Shown here piece by piece: positions 1-18,731 of a DNA stretch of 40,941 nt. Numbering within the stretch: position 1 is the first letter of the stretch; each line of letters starts with the position of its first letter. The notes beneath the pieces were generated by a model. That model was not told the origin of the DNA, ran no database searches, and saw nothing but the letters and a program-made list of their open reading frames with translations. The stretch is from the IMG/VR virus record IMGVR_UViG_2526164598_000016; one strand, given 5' to 3'. The DNA comes from a virus (taxonomy: Duplodnaviria; Heunggongvirae; Uroviricota; Caudoviricetes). A program made the translations under genes and the position numbers.

Positions 1-1131
1 TCAAATGACCAGTTTTTTCCATTCCTTACCGCGTGCGTCGTTGTAAATATCGGTCATTTTTTGATTCGAATGGCCCAGCAAAATTTTGGTATCAACCCCC
101 TGCTCTCTGAACAATCGCTCTGATAAAGATCTCTGCTCATGGAAAGAGGGAGGGGTGCCATTAGCACGCCAGTTGTAATCCACAGAATCCCGGGCTTTTT
201 TAAATGCAACGGTTAATGTTGCTGGCTTAACCATCCCGCCGCGCTTAGCTGTCCCTTTCGCGTGATGGTGGTGCAATAGCCACGGACTAAGAACGCAATC
301 GCGGCAGGATGACACCACATCATCCAGGGTGAGATTTAATTTATCGCAACGCAGAGCCAGAGGGATGGCAATCCGGGTTCCTGTTTTTTGCTGTTCGACA
401 TGAAGATAACCATCCCGGATATCCGAAAATTGCATTTTGAAAATATCTGAAAGGCGCTGGCCTGTCATCAGTGCCAGCAGCATACCGCGCTGTAAAAAGT
501 AACCATCCTTTTCCGCTGCGTTATAAATCATCATCCACTCATCAAAAGTCAGTCGCTGTCTTGATATCCGCACCTGCGGTTTTTTTGCCGATTCTGCAGG
601 GTTAAAGCCTGGCGGGACATCGCCCGTTTGCTGAGCTTCCCGGAAAACATCGATCAGTACTTTCCTGAAAATTTGTCCCATTCTGTTATGTCCTCTGGCC
701 TTGTACTCTTCCAGTACTGATACCACATCTTTTACGGTTATGGCATCTAACGGTCTGGTGCCAAAACGTTCATCAAATACCCTGAGAGGGGCCGCTTTCT
801 GTTTCAGCGTGTTGAGTTTGATCTCGCCGTTTTCATATCTTTCCTGTTGAATTTTTCTGTAATTATTCAGAAAAATGGTAACGGTTGATGAACCGCCGGT
901 ATCACTAATAATTTTCTCCTGCAGACTGAGCATTTGTTCCATTTGCTGCCGGGCAAGACGGCTGTTCGCTTCTGCTGCAATAGTTTCTGCCAGTTTCTGG
1001 TCAATACTGCCGAGACCGTGATTTTTGCCTGTTATGGGATGCCTGTAACGCCAGTAAACTTTGTTATTTCTTTTGTCAAAATACGGAGATAATCCCGGAA
1101 CATCGGTTTTATATTTTCGCGGGCGCGCCAT
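1..1131 (-). CDS. int: Tyrosine recombinase, lambda-family phage integrase
   Basis: 376-aa ORF; C-terminal region has the lambda Int catalytic layout (…HELRSL…LGH…Y…GREW…); stop codon is at window bases 1-3, so the gene is complete and att should lie just outside the window. Confidence 0.9.
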   Translation of the reverse strand: MARPRKYKTDVPGLSPYFDKRNNKVYWRYRHPITGKNHGLGSIDQKLAETIAAEANSRLARQQMEQMLSLQEKIISDTGGSSTVTIFLNNYRKIQQERYENGEIKLNTLKQKAAPLRVFDERFGTRPLDAITVKDVVSVLEEYKARGHNRMGQIFRKVLIDVFREAQQTGDVPPGFNPAESAKKPQVRISRQRLTFDEWMMIYNAAEKDGYFLQRGMLLALMTGQRLSDIFKMQFSDIRDGYLHVEQQKTGTRIAIPLALRCDKLNLTLDDVVSSCRDCVLSPWLLHHHHAKGTAKRGGMVKPATLTVAFKKARDSVDYNWRANGTPPSFHEQRSLSERLFREQGVDTKILLGHSNQKMTDIYNDARGKEWKKLVI

Positions 1132-1420: not shown

Positions 1421-3892
1421 TTAAAAATCAGCCTGATTCGGGATCAGTTTTTGCCAGATAGCTGAAACGTATTTTGCCTGGTAACGGGCATCATCCAGCG
1501 CATTGTGGCGCTCACCTTCGAATGGGATAGCAGTTCTGGCATCGAAGTCTACGGCTTTCCCCAGCTCAACGATTGTGCGTACATCGCGATCGTTGCAGTA
1601 GCGCCACGGGCAGGGGATACCCTGTCGTTCGTATGAACGGCGCAAAATCGTGTTGTCGAAGTTGGCCCCATTACCCCAGACCTGAACAAAAAACTCACCG
1701 GAGTTTTCGTCGATAAATTCCCGCAATTGCAGTAGTGCATCATCTAACGGGATTTCATCGGTCATAATGGCAGACTGCGCTTCACGTGATTGCTTCAGCC
1801 ACCATTTAATGACGTCACGATCAATGACTCCGCCAGCAGTATCCAGATCGATGGTCTTGCTAAATTCTGGTCCCATATCTCCGGTTTGCGGATCGAAAAA
1901 TATTGCGCCTATTGAGATAATCGGGGCATCGGGATTTTTTCCCATGGTTTCAAGGTCGATCATTAGATGGTCACACGTCCTGCTGGTGGATGTGATAACG
2001 TGATGACCGTTCATCGTAATTAAGGGATCTGCCGTCTCGCCAGTTTCACTATCGCTGGCGTGATCCTGAGCGCTACCAGCATTCTCCTTGTGTGGATGTT
2101 CAGCGCCTTCCATTTCCTTCGGATCATTTTCCTGAACTTCAACCTGATTCTCTTCATCGAATGTTTCCTGGTATGTTGCGTCACCCATCACCGCGCCACA
2201 ATCAGGGCAGTTGCCGCCACCGCTTTGACCGCAGGCGGTGCAGACTTTTTCCGGTTCCTGTTGCGCTACTGGCTCAGGTTGTTTCGTTTCTGGCTCGTTT
2301 TGTTGCGTATTTGGGCTGTTTTGTTCCGCTTTCTGGTCGTTCTGTTCCGATTCTTGCTGGTTCTGGTTTACAGAATCGCGGGTTTCAATCCCCTTTACCC
2401 ATTTCGGATCATTCGGGTCGCTAATCCCTGCAACAAATTCTCCGCGAGAGGCAGCAAGCAACTTATCGGCGTCAGGCTGGCTGATATTGGCTGCCTGCAT
2501 AATTTTGTTTACTTCGTCAGCGGTAACTTTTACCGGCTCTGGTTGTGCGGTCGTGTCAGATGCACCAGTATTTTGTTGTGAACCTGAGTACGTGCCGTTT
2601 TTACGTGCGAAGTATTCCTCTTTTGTGATTTCCGTAGCTCCCAAGGCTAGTGCTTTTTCCAGACCAGAAAGTTTGTTTGCGCGACCGTATTTTTCGCCAT
2701 CCTTGTCGGTGAAGAGGAAGTAGAACGGCCCCTCACGCTCTACAGATGGTTCGACTTCCACTTTGCATTCGGTTTTTTCGTTGCCCGGAATTGCCGTTTC
2801 CACTGCATCAGTTTCTGGTACTGGCGACGAGAGAGTATCAGTTGCGCTCTGATTTCTTCCTTCATCTTCAAACACGCCCTTTGTAGTCAGGTATTCAGTA
2901 ATGTATTTGTTCAGTGCCACAGGGTCTTTGTGAATGTCGATCGGACGTTCACGGACAAGGCCAAAAATAGTCTGGCGGTCGTAGCGAAGGGCATCAGGCT
3001 GTTTGCGCATTGATGCCGAGATACGCTTCCAGTCTTCGCGGTCGTTGTCGATAACTTCATTTTTTGCCCAGCGATGGATGCTGCCGTCAATGTTTCCGGC
3101 ATCCACATCACCAGGCCAGAGAGCGTAGGCCAGTTCGTCATCCAGTGTTTTCCATGTCTGCTTGTATTCGCGATGAATGGCAGCAATGACCGGGCTGATT
3201 TTTCCTGTTGAATTTTCACTGTGCTGTTGATTGGTTCTGGCGCGGGCGAGATCAACAACAGACGTGTATTTTCCGGTTTCCTTGCGTTCACCTTCGCGAC
3301 GTTTTTTCCAGATGCGCATCTCTGCCTGAATTTCGGGCCATTTGGCACCAGGCTTACATTTATGCTTAACCCACCCGATGGCATGCAGCTTAAGCTCCGG
3401 ATACATGGCGTTAACTTCTGGCATTTTCATCAACGCTTCAACGATATGTCCGTCGAATGTTGCCATGTCTTCCTGCAACAATTCCTGTGCGCTAATAACC
3501 ATATCAACGGTGATGTTTTCACATGTGTCGAACTTAACCATGACAGCGTTCTGTACTTCAGGGGCCAGCTTGTCAAAAGTGACGTTCATCGGATCGGATT
3601 CAGTCTCAACCGGGACAAAGGAAGCAGACTCCTCATCCCAGCGGTTTTCCTGCATATATTCAGCATCCCAGGAATCGAGGGCAGGGCGGGGTATACCGGG
3701 TTTATCCTCGCAGACAAGAAATTTATAAGCGCAGTCCTGAGCAGCCGGATAATGCTCCAGGAATTGCCAGTGAAATTTTGCGCGGGCGCGACGTTCATCA
3801 CCGGCTTCAATGGCAGTGGCTACAGCGACGGCACCTTCTTCCTTTATTGCCTGTTCGTCCGGAATGGCGGCGCAAATAAAGACTTTACTCAT
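1421..3892 (-). CDS. ExoVIII-like prophage nuclease; C-terminal DnaQ-like (DEDDh) 3'-5' exonuclease domain, central acidic/Q-rich linker with a CxxC…CxxC zinc ribbon
   Basis: 823-aa ORF; C-terminus has IDLETMG…, …GNGANFD…, …HNALDDA… exonuclease motifs; middle has KVCTACGQSGGGNCPDCG; N-terminus resembles the enterobacterial exodeoxyribonuclease VIII N-terminal family (recalled). Confidence 0.8.
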   Translation of the reverse strand: MSKVFICAAIPDEQAIKEEGAVAVATAIEAGDERRARAKFHWQFLEHYPAAQDCAYKFLVCEDKPGIPRPALDSWDAEYMQENRWDEESASFVPVETESDPMNVTFDKLAPEVQNAVMVKFDTCENITVDMVISAQELLQEDMATFDGHIVEALMKMPEVNAMYPELKLHAIGWVKHKCKPGAKWPEIQAEMRIWKKRREGERKETGKYTSVVDLARARTNQQHSENSTGKISPVIAAIHREYKQTWKTLDDELAYALWPGDVDAGNIDGSIHRWAKNEVIDNDREDWKRISASMRKQPDALRYDRQTIFGLVRERPIDIHKDPVALNKYITEYLTTKGVFEDEGRNQSATDTLSSPVPETDAVETAIPGNEKTECKVEVEPSVEREGPFYFLFTDKDGEKYGRANKLSGLEKALALGATEITKEEYFARKNGTYSGSQQNTGASDTTAQPEPVKVTADEVNKIMQAANISQPDADKLLAASRGEFVAGISDPNDPKWVKGIETRDSVNQNQQESEQNDQKAEQNSPNTQQNEPETKQPEPVAQQEPEKVCTACGQSGGGNCPDCGAVMGDATYQETFDEENQVEVQENDPKEMEGAEHPHKENAGSAQDHASDSETGETADPLITMNGHHVITSTSRTCDHLMIDLETMGKNPDAPIISIGAIFFDPQTGDMGPEFSKTIDLDTAGGVIDRDVIKWWLKQSREAQSAIMTDEIPLDDALLQLREFIDENSGEFFVQVWGNGANFDNTILRRSYERQGIPCPWRYCNDRDVRTIVELGKAVDFDARTAIPFEGERHNALDDARYQAKYVSAIWQKLIPNQADF

Positions 3893-3984
3893 TTTGTTTT
3901 ACCTCATTACAGATTTAAGGGTGAACAAATCCCTGCCATTGCTGGCATATAAGAATGAAACCGGATATTTATTACGGAACTGTT

Positions 3985-4176
3985 TTAAAGACCTGCCGGG
4001 ATTTCGTTATTATCCTGGTGAATAACTTTATCGACCGGGTAACAGTTACCGGGAATTTTCTGTTCGGTTGCTGCAGTCACACACTCCTGCATTGTCCTGT
4101 GAACACTGACTGCAATATCAACTGGCTCTCCGGAAACAAGAAAAACTGTCAGAACAAGTGCAAATGCTGTATTCAT
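3985..4176 (-). CDS. Small protein (63 aa) with N-terminal hydrophobic signal/TM-like segment
   Basis: MNTAFALVLTVFLVSGEPVD…; the start ATG overlaps the stop of the upstream small ORF (ATGA overlap, plus-strand tcat at 4173-4176); lies directly upstream of the nuclease gene in the same orientation. Confidence 0.4.
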   Translation of the reverse strand: MNTAFALVLTVFLVSGEPVDIAVSVHRTMQECVTAATEQKIPGNCYPVDKVIHQDNNEIPAGL

Positions 4177-4361
4177 TGCCAGCATCCTTTTTGTATCGGA
4201 CGTAAACGGGCCAGCATTGAAAGAATGCATATTTTATTTAATAGCTCCCGTTCGTGTTTTCTCTTGTTAATGGCATCTTCAGTAAATACAGGGTTACTGA
4301 TAGTGACACCAATTTCAAAACAACCTTCAGACGTATTAACGTTTGGTAATAACGTTTCCAT
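4173..4361 (-). CDS. Small hypothetical protein (62 aa), translationally coupled to the downstream small membrane/secreted ORF
   Basis: ATG at 4361-4359 preceded by GAGGA about 8 nt upstream (reverse-complement reading); ATGA overlap with the next gene. Confidence 0.35.
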   Translation of the reverse strand: METLLPNVNTSEGCFEIGVTISNPVFTEDAINKRKHERELLNKICILSMLARLRPIQKGCWQ

Positions 4362-4927
4362 TATCGCGTCCTCAACAATGAATTTTGTGATGCGGTGCCT
4401 GGTGCCTCCAGGTGACGTTAACCAGTTAACAATTAACGCCGGATACAGAGAATCCACCCATAACACTGTTTTTGGTTTTAACTGTTCCGCGTGCGCTCAG
4501 CCGCATTCACCACATCACAAAATTCACTTTAAAAAGGGCGGCAGAGCAGTCACGGAGTAAAACTGATACCGCCAAACGTCACCAGAAAATTGATAACAGA
4601 GGGCGTTGCAGCGGGGTTGTCACTTAAGCGTATGGTCAACCTGACAACCCGGTGTCCTCAACGGGGGAAGGAATAACCCCGCCATACTTACCGCCGCGCC
4701 ATTTCGCGGATTGCCACAACCGGAAGCGCACGGTCGACGAAAATTTAACGACAGGCTATCTATGAACCAGCTACCTCGCCGTGCGCTTTCGCGTTATGGT
4801 CTGACTTTTCAGGGAAATATCCTTTCAGTAAACTGTCAGTGCCGGATTCTTATCCGTGTCCGGCGCACGACCACACGCTGTCACGAGAGGTCTCCATTCT
4901 CAACCAGTAACCTCAATGGAGGATAAA

Positions 4928-5122
4928 ATGTCAGAGCAGGAGTTAAAACTTGGTGCATGTTATTGTGTTCTCAAGGAGCTGGTACACATGCTTCCATCTA
5001 CTCAGTATCAACAGTTAGTTGGCAATTTAAATCAGCGAATCGAAGCTATGTTAAAATCTGATGGTTTTAATAACGTAGAAACGCTGATGCTAAAAAGATA
5101 TCTTGATGGATTAATCAGATAA
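4928..5122 (+). CDS. Small hypothetical protein (64 aa), plus-strand gene within a minus-strand early region
   Basis: ATG at 4928 preceded by GGAGGA (4917-4922); about 450 bp of non-coding DNA upstream; the 3' end overlaps the convergent minus-strand gene by 12 nt. Confidence 0.4.
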   Translation: MSEQELKLGACYCVLKELVHMLPSTQYQQLVGNLNQRIEAMLKSDGFNNVETLMLKRYLDGLIR

Positions 5123-5449
5123 CATTTTTTTACGGCGTTCATATTCGTTAATATTTATGAAGCCTGTTGCCAGAAGCAGTTCGTTAATTTCATGGTTGTT
5201 TGGCTGTTTCTGGCTCTTTGAGCTGGGATCTTCCACTTCTTTTTCTGCAAATTGTTTTGCTGTATCCTCTGTGCCATGGATATTTAAAGCTGTATCTGAA
5301 AACAGCCCAGTAAACGCATCGCGCACATTACGAGCCATATTATCAGTGTCTTTTTTTGTTACCGATTCCAATTCAAGTTCGTTCAGACGATGACGAAGTG
5401 TGTGTGCTGCAATCTCCTGGATTGAAGGAGGTAAATCTTTAAATTCCAT
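5111..5449 (-). CDS. Hypothetical protein (112 aa), acidic
   Basis: The internal ATG (MEFKDLPPSIQ…) has GAGG upstream; the ORF track extends 4 codons further to 5461. Confidence 0.45.
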   Translation of the reverse strand: MEFKDLPPSIQEIAAHTLRHRLNELELESVTKKDTDNMARNVRDAFTGLFSDTALNIHGTEDTAKQFAEKEVEDPSSKSQKQPNNHEINELLLATGFININEYERRKKMLSD

Positions 5450-5460
5450 CGTCAACCTCA

Positions 5461-5700
5461 TCAGTCAGTGTTTCTTGCTAACCAGCGATGCGCACCAGCT
5501 GCGGTTTTAAACGTTTTACTTTTGGTATACGTCATCGCGGTGAAGGTGCCGTCCTGGTTAGGGAACACACCGCATACCAGAGATTCGTTGTTGCCAAGAT
5601 TGAGCGTATCCATGTTGACCTCATTTCCCCTTAACGCCGGGGTAGCGGAACAAAAAACCTGCTGCGCTGTTATACAAAGTGTTCCCGCCGTCATGTTCAT
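5461..5700 (-). CDS. Small hypothetical protein, first gene of the leftward early transcript (alternative start at 5613 gives 50 aa)
   Basis: 79-aa ORF; both candidate ATGs (5700 and 5613) have GAGG-like SD; lies just downstream of the PL-like promoter/operator segment. Confidence 0.35.
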   Translation of the reverse strand: MNMTAGTLCITAQQVFCSATPALRGNEVNMDTLNLGNNESLVCGVFPNQDGTFTAMTYTKSKTFKTAAGAHRWLARNTD

Positions 5701-5780: not shown

Positions 5781-5830
5781 GTTGGTATTTTTAGTTTAAT
5801 AAACATTAAACTTAAGTCAAGTAAAAACTA
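5781..5830 (-). promoter_or_regulatory. Candidate leftward early promoter/operator (PL/OL-like)
   Basis: Contains TTGACT (reverse complement) and a segment that is an inverted copy of the PR/OR-like region at 6800-6860 (shared TACTTGACTTAA…GTTTATTAAAC and ACTAAACCG). Confidence 0.35.
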
Positions 5831-5904: not shown

Positions 5905-6183
5905 TTAGGGAAACTGGCGTCTTGCGTGGATCACGTTTACTACTTCAACGCTTGATGTTGTTACGCGGTATAGAATTATATAGTTAGGGTGGGCTACAAT
6001 CTCACGCAAGCCAGGTACTCTGTCGCTTGGTGGGTATAAATACGGATGTTCGGATAACGGCAGCACACAACCCCTTAATCGCTGCCATAAGCGTTCAGCC
6101 GCATCTATGTCGAAACGAGCAATATAACTAGTTATATCATCTAGGTCGGTATCTGCGCTTTCAAGCCATAACACGGGTAACAT
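5905..6183 (-). CDS. RelE/ParE-family type II toxin (92 aa)
   Basis: MLPVLWLESADTDLDDITSYIA…VHARRQFP, typical ParE/RelE-fold sequence; start ATG sits 1 nt after the antitoxin stop (TAAAATG). Confidence 0.8.
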   Translation of the reverse strand: MLPVLWLESADTDLDDITSYIARFDIDAAERLWQRLRGCVLPLSEHPYLYPPSDRVPGLREIVAHPNYIILYRVTTSSVEVVNVIHARRQFP

Positions 6184-6184
6184 T

Positions 6185-6376
6185 TTACTGCTTGCTCCGT
6201 TCCTTACGCATCTTAGCAAAGCGTTCTGCCATTCTGCGCTCAACTTCGTCATGGGGAATTGCTGGGCGCGGATCTGCAAGGCTCGTTGCTACTTTCGCAC
6301 GCAGCCATTCGTTGTAACTGTTTTCTTGTTCAATGGTTTCAAATTCAGAAACCATTGGTGAAAGGGCTCTATTCAT
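6185..6376 (-). CDS. Cognate antitoxin (63 aa, ParD/StbD-like)
   Basis: Small acidic protein immediately upstream of and coupled to the toxin; GGAGG SD 6 nt upstream of the ATG at 6376. Confidence 0.75.
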   Translation of the reverse strand: MNRALSPMVSEFETIEQENSYNEWLRAKVATSLADPRPAIPHDEVERRMAERFAKMRKERSKQ

Positions 6377-6396
6377 GTTTCCTCCGGTTTTATAAC

Positions 6397-6675
6397 TCAG
6401 GCGCGGCGGCATTTTTGCGCCGCAATCCATCTCGCTATGAGATCTTCCATTGATTCTTTTTTCTGCTTTAACTCGCTGATTATCTGGCGTTGCTCATCCT
6501 CAGGGAAGGCTGAAAAAATCTGCAATAATTCCAGTTGATTAGACGTTAACCCTGCATGTGGTGGAGAAACCCCCGGTTGTTCTGCGTATTCCGCATCCAG
6601 ATACCCTTCCGGCATCCCGTATGTTTGCTCTATTCTTCTGGCAGCCTTTTCTCCAAACGAGGCTCTCCCACTCAT
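6397..6675 (-). CDS. Prophage repressor (CI-like recognition helix, DicA/RacR-like C-terminal region); the N-terminal part is displaced by a frameshift in an A7 tract (see findings)
   Basis: Frame continues upstream without a start codon as …KKEIRRLRLKEWFKDKTLPPKEKSYLSQLMSGRASFGEKAARRIEQ…; the only ATG (6767-6765) is one frame off across the A7 run; C-terminus has NQLELLQIFSAFPEDEQ. Confidence 0.6.
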   Translation of the reverse strand: MSGRASFGEKAARRIEQTYGMPEGYLDAEYAEQPGVSPPHAGLTSNQLELLQIFSAFPEDEQRQIISELKQKKESMEDLIARWIAAQKCRRA

Positions 6676-6788
6676 TAGTTGAGATAGGTAGCTCTTCTCT
6701 TTGGGTGGCAGAGTTTTATCTTTAAACCACTCCTTGAGACGTAAACGGCGAATTTCTTTTTTTGCATGTGGTAATTATCTTTAGTAAT

Positions 6789-6854
6789 CACTAAACAAGC
6801 AAATACTTGACTTAATGGTTTATTAAACACTAAACTCGCAAAAAAACACTAAAC
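6789..6854 (+). promoter_or_regulatory. Candidate PR/OR: three direct CACTAAAC repeats and a TTGACT -35
   Basis: CACTAAAC at 6789-6796, 6828-6835 and 6847-6854; TTGACT at 6806-6811; lies between the divergent repressor and Cro-like genes. Confidence 0.4.
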
Positions 6855-12879: not shown

Positions 12880-13056
12880 TTGCTGCGGGTGCTTGAGGCT
12901 ATCTGCCTCAGGCATGAACACCAAAAGGCAGATAGAGAAAAGCCCCAGTTAACATTACGCGTCCTGCAAGACGCTTAACATTAATCTGAGGCCCAATCTA
13001 TGTCTCACAAATGTAGGTTAGCCTCTTACGTGCCGAAAGGCAAGGAGAAGCAGGCT
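12880..13056 (-). ncRNA. Candidate hok leader with antisense (sok-like) regulatory region
   Basis: Leader has complementary elements CTATCTGCC / GGCAGATAG and a TGAGGC…GCCTCA hairpin upstream of hok, as in hok/sok loci; antisense promoter not pinpointed. Confidence 0.3.
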
Positions 13057-13212
13057 ATGAAGCAGCAAAAGGCGATGCTAATCGCCCTGATCGTCATCTG
13101 TTTAACCGTCATGGTGACGGCACTGGTAACGAGGAAAGACCTCTGCGAGGTACGAATCCGAACCGGCCAGACGGAGGTCGCTGTCTTCACAGCTTACGAA
13201 CCTGAGGAGTAA
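13057..13212 (+). CDS. hok: Hok/Gef-family type I toxin (51 aa)
   Basis: MKQQKAMLIALIVICLTVMVTALVTRKDLCEVRIRTGQTEVAVFTAYEPEE matches the Hok family (TM helix, …TRK.LCE.R…EV.AF.AYE…). Confidence 0.8.
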   Translation: MKQQKAMLIALIVICLTVMVTALVTRKDLCEVRIRTGQTEVAVFTAYEPEE

Positions 13213-17587: not shown

Positions 17588-17663
17588 GGCCCTTTAGCTC
17601 AGTGGTGAGAGCGAGCGACTCATAATCGCCAGGTCGCTGGTTCAAATCCAGCAAGGGCCACCA
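17588..17663 (+). tRNA. tRNA with CAT anticodon (Ile2/Met-type; ileZ-like of Stx phages)
   Basis: Cloverleaf by hand: acceptor stem GGCCCTT/AAGGGCC, anticodon loop CTCATAA, encoded CCA end. Confidence 0.85.
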
Positions 17664-17763
17664 TCACAAACCGCCATTAGCTTATCAGGAAGAGCAGACG
17701 ACACGATAACAGGGTTGTTGGTGCGGGGGCGGGTCCCCGATGGCGGTCCATTATCGGTATTCA

Positions 17764-17840
17764 GCGTTGTTAGCTCAGCCGGACAGAGCAATTGCCTTCT
17801 AAGCAATCGGTCACTGGTTCGAATCCAGTACAGCGCGCCA
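17764..17840 (+). tRNA. tRNA-Arg (anticodon TCT)
   Basis: Acceptor stem GCGTTGT/ACAGCGC, anticodon loop CTTCTAA, encoded CCA end. Confidence 0.85.
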
Positions 17841-18304: not shown

Positions 18305-18696
18305 ATACATATCTGGATTATCACCGGTTACGGTAAAAAGTGATTGCTTACTGTTTTTGTGAATGGCATTGCAGCAGCCGGATAATGTCAGTGCTGGCTG
18401 ACGGTGTGCTGGTGGCGGGTGTGGTGGTTGCTGCTTTCCCGTTGCTGAAAAAGAAAACGCCAGACTGTTAGCCGGGTATCAGTTAGCGGGAGAAATTTTT
18501 AAATACTTCACAATTCAGGCGGTTGACTGTTGTCTGGTTTGCGGGGAGTTTGTTAAAAGAAACTGGCATGGTGAATCCCCCTGTGCGGAGGGGCAATCAG
18601 CGAGTAGGTATATGGGATAATCGCGGATTCAGGTGCTGGTACTGAATTCACCGGGAGGCACCCGGCACCATGCAATGGCACATAGCGCCACTCTCC

Positions 18697-18731
18697 AGCC
18701 CCTCTCCGGAGGGGCTGTTTATATTGATTTT
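18697..18731 (+). terminator. Hairpin plus T-rich tract (plus-strand terminator-like) inside the cargo slot
   Basis: AGCCCCTC-TCCG-GAGGGGCT followed by GTTTATATTGATTTT. Confidence 0.45.

Follow-up and report, generated by a model that had tools for sequence, protein, structure and literature searches.

Identity and layout of dicB and ydfD

The window, by which we mean the whole 40,941-nt stretch of viral DNA analysed, carries two short overlapping genes on its minus strand between positions 3985 and 4361. Direct reading took the first open reading frame (ORF) from an ATG at 4361–4359 to a TGA at 4175–4173 (62 aa) and the second from an ATG at 4176–4174 to a TAA at 3987–3985 (63 aa), confirming to the base the two ORFs proposed in an earlier sequence-only reading. 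The first (4173–4361) is dicB, encoding the cell division inhibition protein DicB, as identified by the models PF05358 and NF049927, by identity to the E. coli K-12 protein, and by the annotation of E. coli FORC_069. The second (3985–4176) is ydfD, encoding a 63-aa DUF1482 protein orthologous to the Qin lysis protein YdfD, as identified by PF07358 and PHROG 1092. The two genes share an ATGA start/stop overlap (4173–4176), which is a translational coupling signal. A GAGGA Shine-Dalgarno sequence lies 7 nt before the dicB ATG (4369–4373), and a Shine-Dalgarno-like AGGA within the 3' end of dicB precedes the ydfD ATG by 8 nt (4185–4188). The overlap and the GAGGA motif had both been proposed before and are present as described.

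In a mechanically generated ORF list, dicB appeared as a 97-aa GTG frame (4173–4466) and ydfD only as an 81-aa frame (3985–4230) opening at an upstream ATG at 4230, in agreement with the earlier remark that the second gene is listed there only as a longer frame. Both longer starts were rejected: GTG 4466 because the PF05358 model starts with the first residue of the 62-aa protein, and ATG 4230 because the PF07358 model starts with residue 4 of the 63-aa protein. Ahead of ydfD in PPompW_EH2246, the reading frame stays open over just 8 codons, without a start codon; since the extension is closed in this copy, the 63-aa start is the real one.

The 62-aa protein matched PF05358 (DicB) over residues 1–62 of 62 (E 1.7e-37, 127.4 bits, cutoff 27) and NF049927 (CellDivInhibDicB) with 132.7 bits, the curated cutoff being 100. 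The 63-aa protein matched PF07358 (DUF1482) with E 3.7e-25 (88.0 bits, cutoff 25), residues 4–61 covering profile positions 1–57 of 57, and PHROG 1092 with E 2e-37; the PHROG matches for the two proteins were PHROG 1251 and PHROG 1092. An NCBIfam scan returned no model matching YdfD. Sequence searches of the PDB found no relative of YdfD and, for DicB, only a chance match to ribosomal protein L13 (E 0.21). The proteins were 89% identical to K-12 DicB and 92% identical to the K-12 RefSeq entry "lysis protein YdfD", each at equal length. A 1001-bp stretch (3700–4700) was 100% identical to E. coli FORC_069, in which PGAP annotates dicB (WP_000449192.1), ydfD (WP_001090200.1, with the product name only "DUF1482 family protein"), and the exonuclease gene, followed by excisionase, integrase, and ompW.

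Seven substitutions separate DicB of the window from K-12 DicB (K2E, Q36H, V47L, L55P, M56I, P57Q, and A61W), four of them within the last eight residues and one at position 2. In K-12 DicB, the N-terminal 13–14 residues are required for activity and full MinC binding, and the last eight residues are dispensable; at K2, substitution by A, G, or R is tolerated and deletion is not, E being outside the tested set (PMC4967827). The N-terminus of the window protein is intact save for K2E, and we expect this allele to have retained its function. YdfD differs from its K-12 counterpart by five substitutions (S3T, V6A, M33V, I57N, and S60P), of which I57N and S60P bring it nearer than K-12 YdfD to the family consensus NNEIPAGL. 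It keeps the C-terminal AGL, including the terminal L63; in K-12 YdfD, L63A or loss of one terminal residue (deltaC1) abolishes killing (PMC8835842). Residues C32 and C45 were invariant over 29 aligned homologues and also over the Klebsiella, Salmonella, and Citrobacter copies (36–50% identity).

Placement in a dicBF-type operon and the surrounding prophage

A DicF antisense sRNA gene lies upstream of dicB on the same strand (4536–4587), 175 nt away. It matched Rfam RF00039 over model positions 1–52 of 52 (76.7 bits, gathering score 48, E 2.3e-15), and direct reading showed that it ends in a stem like that of an intrinsic terminator, with a run of T after it. Further upstream is a ydfA-like DUF1391 gene (5461–5613, minus strand), the first cistron of a dicBF-type operon. 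PF07151 matched residues 31–77 of the ORF at 5461–5700 (E 6e-29), and the leader and start align with K-12 ydfA. DicF and the ydfA-like gene thus precede the pair, and exonuclease, xis, and int follow it, so that the gene order assigns dicB and ydfD as the distal cistrons of a dicBF operon, the pL-type, leftward early operon of a lambdoid prophage. The early-left placement proposed in the sequence-only reading was borne out, the pair lying upstream of the exonuclease, xis, and int genes, although the separate two-gene operon implied by its title was not, the pair being distal to DicF.

The K-12 Qin gene order matches that of the window (ydfA, ydfB, ydfC, dicB, ydfD, and a truncated exonuclease pseudogene); dicF was absent from the K-12 CDS table that we used, and its place in the operon was taken from PMC10448788. 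According to that study, the K-12 operon is transcribed from dicBp as a ydfABC-dicF-dicB-ydfD polycistron, the longest detected species being a 1,608-nt ydfABC-dicFB-ydfD transcript that ends after ydfD, and primer extension and Northern blots revealed no additional promoter within the operon (PMC10448788). For the window, we infer a promoter upstream of the ydfA-like gene (5793–5820, minus strand) and a terminator between ydfD and the exonuclease gene (3934–3947, minus strand). The candidate promoter, the equivalent of pL or dicBp, was found by consensus scan and consists of TTGACT and TAAACT separated by 16 nt; it matches the consensus at 9 of 12 positions, with a site count no higher than in shuffled sequences, and its region shows no homology to K-12 dicBp. 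The candidate terminator, found by pattern scan, is a hairpin (TGCCAGCAATGGCA) with a T-rich tail, such hairpins being no more numerous in the region than expected from shuffling; its placement fits the end of the longest K-12 transcript (PMC10448788).

We also considered whether the pair might be transcribed autonomously, as a two-gene operon, from a promoter of its own within the dicF-dicB spacer. An older study, according to its mention in PMC10448788, suggested a promoter upstream of dicB; the 175-nt spacer is unusually conserved, and the terminator-like stem and T run of DicF would also suit such an arrangement. However, nothing resembling a promoter turned up in our scan of the minus strand from 4362 to 4535, and the K-12 mapping experiments, in which no internal promoter was seen and the 1,608-nt transcript was detected (PMC10448788), point the other way. 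We therefore consider an autonomous operon highly improbable and retain the assignment of dicB and ydfD as distal cistrons.

The surrounding lambdoid prophage is apparently full-length, with the order int-xis-exonuclease-ydfD-dicB-dicF, then the immunity region, and then lysis, head, and tail genes. The window starts within a lambda-type integrase gene (1–1131, minus strand). The gene downstream of ydfD, called a nuclease in the sequence-only reading, encodes an 823-aa exonuclease (1421–3892, minus strand) whose sole Pfam domain is PF16473, a C-terminal Rv2179c-like 3'-5' exonuclease domain (E 1.2e-65, residues 642–813). Its FORC_069 counterpart is annotated as "exonuclease", and K-12 retains only a truncated pseudogene. 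Several phage records name this protein exodeoxyribonuclease VIII, and the Pfam domain is of DEDD type; the first ~640 residues, whose middle part is acidic and of low complexity, match nothing.

Two further ORFs were noted within the leftward operon. A plus-strand ORF (4856–5122) between the ydfA-like genes and dicF had no Pfam match; at its counterpart in FORC_069 and ATCC 25922, RefSeq annotates a 64-aa "hypothetical protein" (WP_001295058.1). A 116-aa minus-strand ORF (5111–5461) overlaps the ydfA-like stop by one base and likewise had no Pfam match; in ATCC 25922 and FORC_069, only a 151-nt partial pseudogene is annotated at this position.

Beyond the ydfA-like gene, the immunity region carries a ParE/PaaA2 toxin-antitoxin pair and a Cro/YdaS-like gene. 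The type II toxin-antitoxin pair (5905–6430, minus strand) was recognised by matches to ParE-family PF05016 (E 4.8e-16) and PaaA2-type PF21217 (E 1.7e-19), and it sits between a repressor-like gene and the ydfA-dicF-dicB-ydfD operon, which is the position of dicA in K-12. The repressor-like gene, in the cI position upstream of PaaA2/ParE, encodes 123 aa in ATCC 25922 (WP_001169687.1, L015:1634–2005). In the window (~6763, minus strand), it has a 1-nt deletion (A8 to A7) directly after the ATG, which divides it into frames of 51 and 92 aa (ORFs 6675–6830 and 6397–6675). This deletion may be either an error in sequencing the homopolymer or a real frameshift, possibly in a phase-variable homopolymer whose changes could derepress the early operons. 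Rfam matches on the plus strand at 12887–13062, 17588–17837, and 18537–18726 correspond to a sok antitoxin RNA (121.7 bits; it adjoins a hok-type locus), to two tRNA genes, and to STnc100 (132.4 bits), the last presumably in the late-promoter region.

Conservation and distribution

Both frames were intact in all nine copies examined, which ranged from the window through K-12 to PPompW_EH2246. The RTGA overlap was likewise kept in 9/9 Escherichia copies, as GTGA in the most diverged, PPompW_EH2246 (YdfD ~50% identical). Pairwise estimates against the window (Nei-Gojobori) gave a dN/dS of 0.45 for dicB against PPompW_EH2246 (dS 0.68), and of 0.24 and 0.53 for ydfD against STEC711 (dS 0.62) and PPompW_EH2246 (dS 0.98), respectively. 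Values for close pairs were near 1, but they derive from 4–12 substitutions, too few for them to be meaningful. Both genes are conserved under purifying selection.

Short ORFs are common by chance, with 47 ORFs of at least 30 aa in 4 kb, and by length alone the two frames do not stand out from this number. Together with the close-allele dN/dS near 1, resting on those 4–12 substitutions, this would be what is expected if the two ORFs were decaying remnants or chance frames without function in the prophage. We regard that reading as scarcely credible, since the HMM matches are full-length (E 1e-25 to 1e-37), the frames and overlap survive in all nine copies, dN/dS is 0.2–0.5 where divergence is sufficient, the functionally critical residues of DicB and YdfD are kept, and the surrounding prophage looks complete. 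The full-length profile matches, the intact frames and RTGA overlap in diverged copies, and the dN/dS of 0.2–0.5 establish the two ORFs as real genes.

Directly upstream of the dicB start, a stretch of 135 nt (45 codons; 4362–4496) has an identical translation in the window and PPompW_EH2246, in contrast to the diverged dicB and ydfD downstream (dS 0.68 and 0.98). The conserved stretch may mark a mosaic recombination boundary or a conserved RNA leader. Within the dicF-dicB spacer (4362–4535, minus strand) there is also a hairpin, CCTGGAGGCACCAGG, similar to one found in the STnc100 match (18537–18726).

Of 5426 complete E. coli genomes, 4671 gave a match to the 1001-bp query, and in 3771 the match covered at least 80% of the query; the median was two places per genome. 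Functional phages, mEp460 and Tritos among them, also gave matches. A tblastn search of phage genomes found DicB in Escherichia phages only. The best 120 matches in the YdfD homologue search were from Escherichia and Shigella only, and remoter homologues were recovered by tblastn against phage genomes. The pair is already known: it is named, characterised, annotated in identical RefSeq sequence, and present in most E. coli genomes.

In phages of Klebsiella, Citrobacter, and Salmonella, the DUF1482 homologues (36–45% identity) are start/stop-overlapped with a small upstream ORF (loci L004:1391–1692, L007:1391–1692, L008:1382–1695, L005:1301–1698, and L006:1301–1698). In these phages, the upstream partner is not DicB but PHROG 22279 (37–40 aa, Klebsiella) or PHROG 3722 (66 aa, Salmonella and Citrobacter), and Pfam and PHROG scans of these small ORFs returned only families of unknown function. 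The coupled arrangement is thus kept across genera while the partner changes. A tentative and rather doubtful extension would be that the DUF1482 lysis gene is always carried in a translationally coupled module of two genes, the upstream one encoding an antagonist or a brake on division. If the partners in these phages were unrecognised division inhibitors or YdfD antidotes, the slot would define a cassette of the "brake plus division-dependent lysis" type, general to lambdoid phages of enterobacteria. A related reading is that the conserved cysteine pair may mark a YdfD domain that faces the envelope and has a target other than IspG.

Phage Evi (L016:744–965) and at least one E. coli genome carry a gene for a 73-aa Kil protein in place of dicB-ydfD, flanked alike by the dicF leader on one side and the exonuclease on the other. 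Division-inhibitor cassettes thus seem to be exchangeable at the dicB-ydfD slot.

Functions, topology of YdfD, and comparison with known systems

Overall, we assign the region, with a probability of roughly 93%, to dicB and ydfD as the final pair of small cistrons in the dicBF operon of an apparently full-length lambdoid prophage, with K-12-type functions ascribed by transfer. The gene identities, the coupled layout, the upstream DicF gene, and purifying selection were observed directly, and the mechanism for the window alleles is transferred entirely from the 89–92% identical K-12 Qin copies. As a discovery the assignment carries little weight, the biology of dicB and ydfD having already been studied experimentally; what is gained is a correct annotation of the window, which places the pair in an early-left operon that includes DicF, within a prophage that appears intact. 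Interest remains in the topology and true target of YdfD and in the small proteins coupled to YdfD homologues elsewhere.

The sequence-only reading had guessed at host-modulating functions, and published work on the K-12 copies, for which growth inhibition and superinfection exclusion experiments have already been reported, agrees with it. DicB binds MinC and takes it to the septum via ZipA, whereupon the FtsZ ring is dismantled (PMC6832061, PMC10448788), and it protects against lambda and other phages that inject via ManYZ, in a MinC-dependent manner (PMC6832061). YdfD expression is toxic and causes lysis within hours of induction; this lysis occurs only while cells are dividing, and either DicB or SulA prevents it (PMC8835842). 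YdfD was reported to bind IspG in vitro and in vivo, its cysteines being dispensable for this binding, and ispG overexpression or added HMBPP was reported to rescue lysis; the mechanism comes from the binding and rescue experiments of one laboratory, without an enzyme assay (PMC8835842).

By analogy with the K-12 work, the operon in the window would be silent under an active prophage repressor and would be expressed as one polycistronic RNA once repression is lifted. DicB would then bring MinC to the septum, where the FtsZ ring would be taken apart and cells would filament; by the same MinC-dependent route, it would block the ManYZ inner-membrane channel, so that lambda-like phages could not inject their DNA. 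YdfD would cause rapid division-dependent lysis, counteracted by DicB or SulA, and its reported binding to IspG may starve the cell of isoprenoid (undecaprenyl-phosphate) precursors. From the layout of the genes, ribosomes finishing dicB would probably restart on ydfD at the ATGA overlap, helped by the Shine-Dalgarno sequence inside the dicB end, and synthesis of the lysis protein YdfD would then always accompany that of its antagonist DicB and scale with it.

The hydrophobic start that the sequence-only reading had noted in the second protein is present: residues A4–V14 of YdfD are uncharged and hydrophobic, with a Kyte-Doolittle (KD) mean of 2.95 over 11 residues. The label "secreted/membrane-type" in the same reading is nevertheless not established, and secretion is not supported. 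We took a Sec-type signal peptide to consist of a positive n-region, an h-region of ~10–15 residues, and small residues at −3 and −1 from the cleavage site, and a single-pass membrane anchor to be an uninterrupted hydrophobic helix of ~18–22 residues. In YdfD, the first charged residue is E17, no K or R occurs before residue 27, and the net charge is −4; the h-region A4–V14 is present and V14-S15-G16 would fit the −3/−1 cleavage rule, but the positive n-region is absent. The uninterrupted hydrophobic run is ~13 residues long, broken by E17 and D20, and the best 19-residue window (5–23, KD 1.87) is interrupted by the same two residues. The reported partner IspG is cytoplasmic, and DicB has no hydrophobic segment at all. 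AlphaFold2 modelled residues 5–12 and 18–26 of YdfD as a beta-hairpin in the best model (pLDDT 75; the four others ~50), from a shallow alignment of 29 sequences, all at least 73% identical; the prediction is uninformative on function and topology. A Foldseek search of the model against the PDB returned nothing better than E 1.6.

Two features of YdfD, its hydrophobic N-terminus and its invariant pair of cysteines, are not easily reconciled with the IspG mechanism. An alternative is that YdfD acts at the envelope and not via IspG, its N-terminus lying in or across the inner membrane and its acidic C-terminal domain at the envelope, much like single-gene lysis proteins that hit membrane-bound cell-wall steps. 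The succession of a hydrophobic A4–V14 and an acidic domain is compatible with this arrangement, the C32/C45 pair would fit a disulfide in an oxidising compartment, and division-dependent lysis is what a septal or envelope target would be expected to produce; the dispensability of the cysteines for IspG binding and the missing enzyme assay also leave room for it. However, a run of ~13 residues without a positive n-region is neither a typical signal peptide nor a transmembrane helix, the reported rescue by ispG overexpression or HMBPP argues for the IspG route, and the only confident AlphaFold2 model is a packed beta-hairpin and not a helix, although this is weak evidence. We consider action at the envelope unlikely.

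The closest known systems include DicB and YdfD of the Qin (Kim) cryptic prophage of K-12. DicB of Qin shares the 62-aa length, is identical over residues 3–35, and likewise follows DicF and precedes ydfD with an ATGA overlap. YdfD of Qin (paralogue YebW) shares the 63-aa length, the hydrophobic N-terminus, C32/C45, the terminal AGL, and the coupling to dicB. Compared with Qin, the prophage in the window is complete-looking and has a PaaR2/PaaA2/ParE immunity region instead of dicA/dicC.

DicB also resembles lambda Kil and Rac KilR, the division inhibitors of pL operons, in the kind of role and in genomic slot, with no sequence relationship detected between DicB and the Kil proteins. Kil proteins act on FtsZ. 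DicB, unlike Kil, acts through MinC and ZipA (PMC6832061). YdfD was likened by Lu et al. (PMC8835842) to single-gene lysis proteins (phiX174 E, Qbeta A2, and LysM), in that it is likewise small and reported to block an envelope-precursor pathway. It has no homology to these three proteins, and IspG, the target reported for it, is cytoplasmic and belongs to a step ahead of peptidoglycan synthesis. A further difference is that ydfD lies in an early-left operon, in a tailed prophage with late lysis genes of its own.
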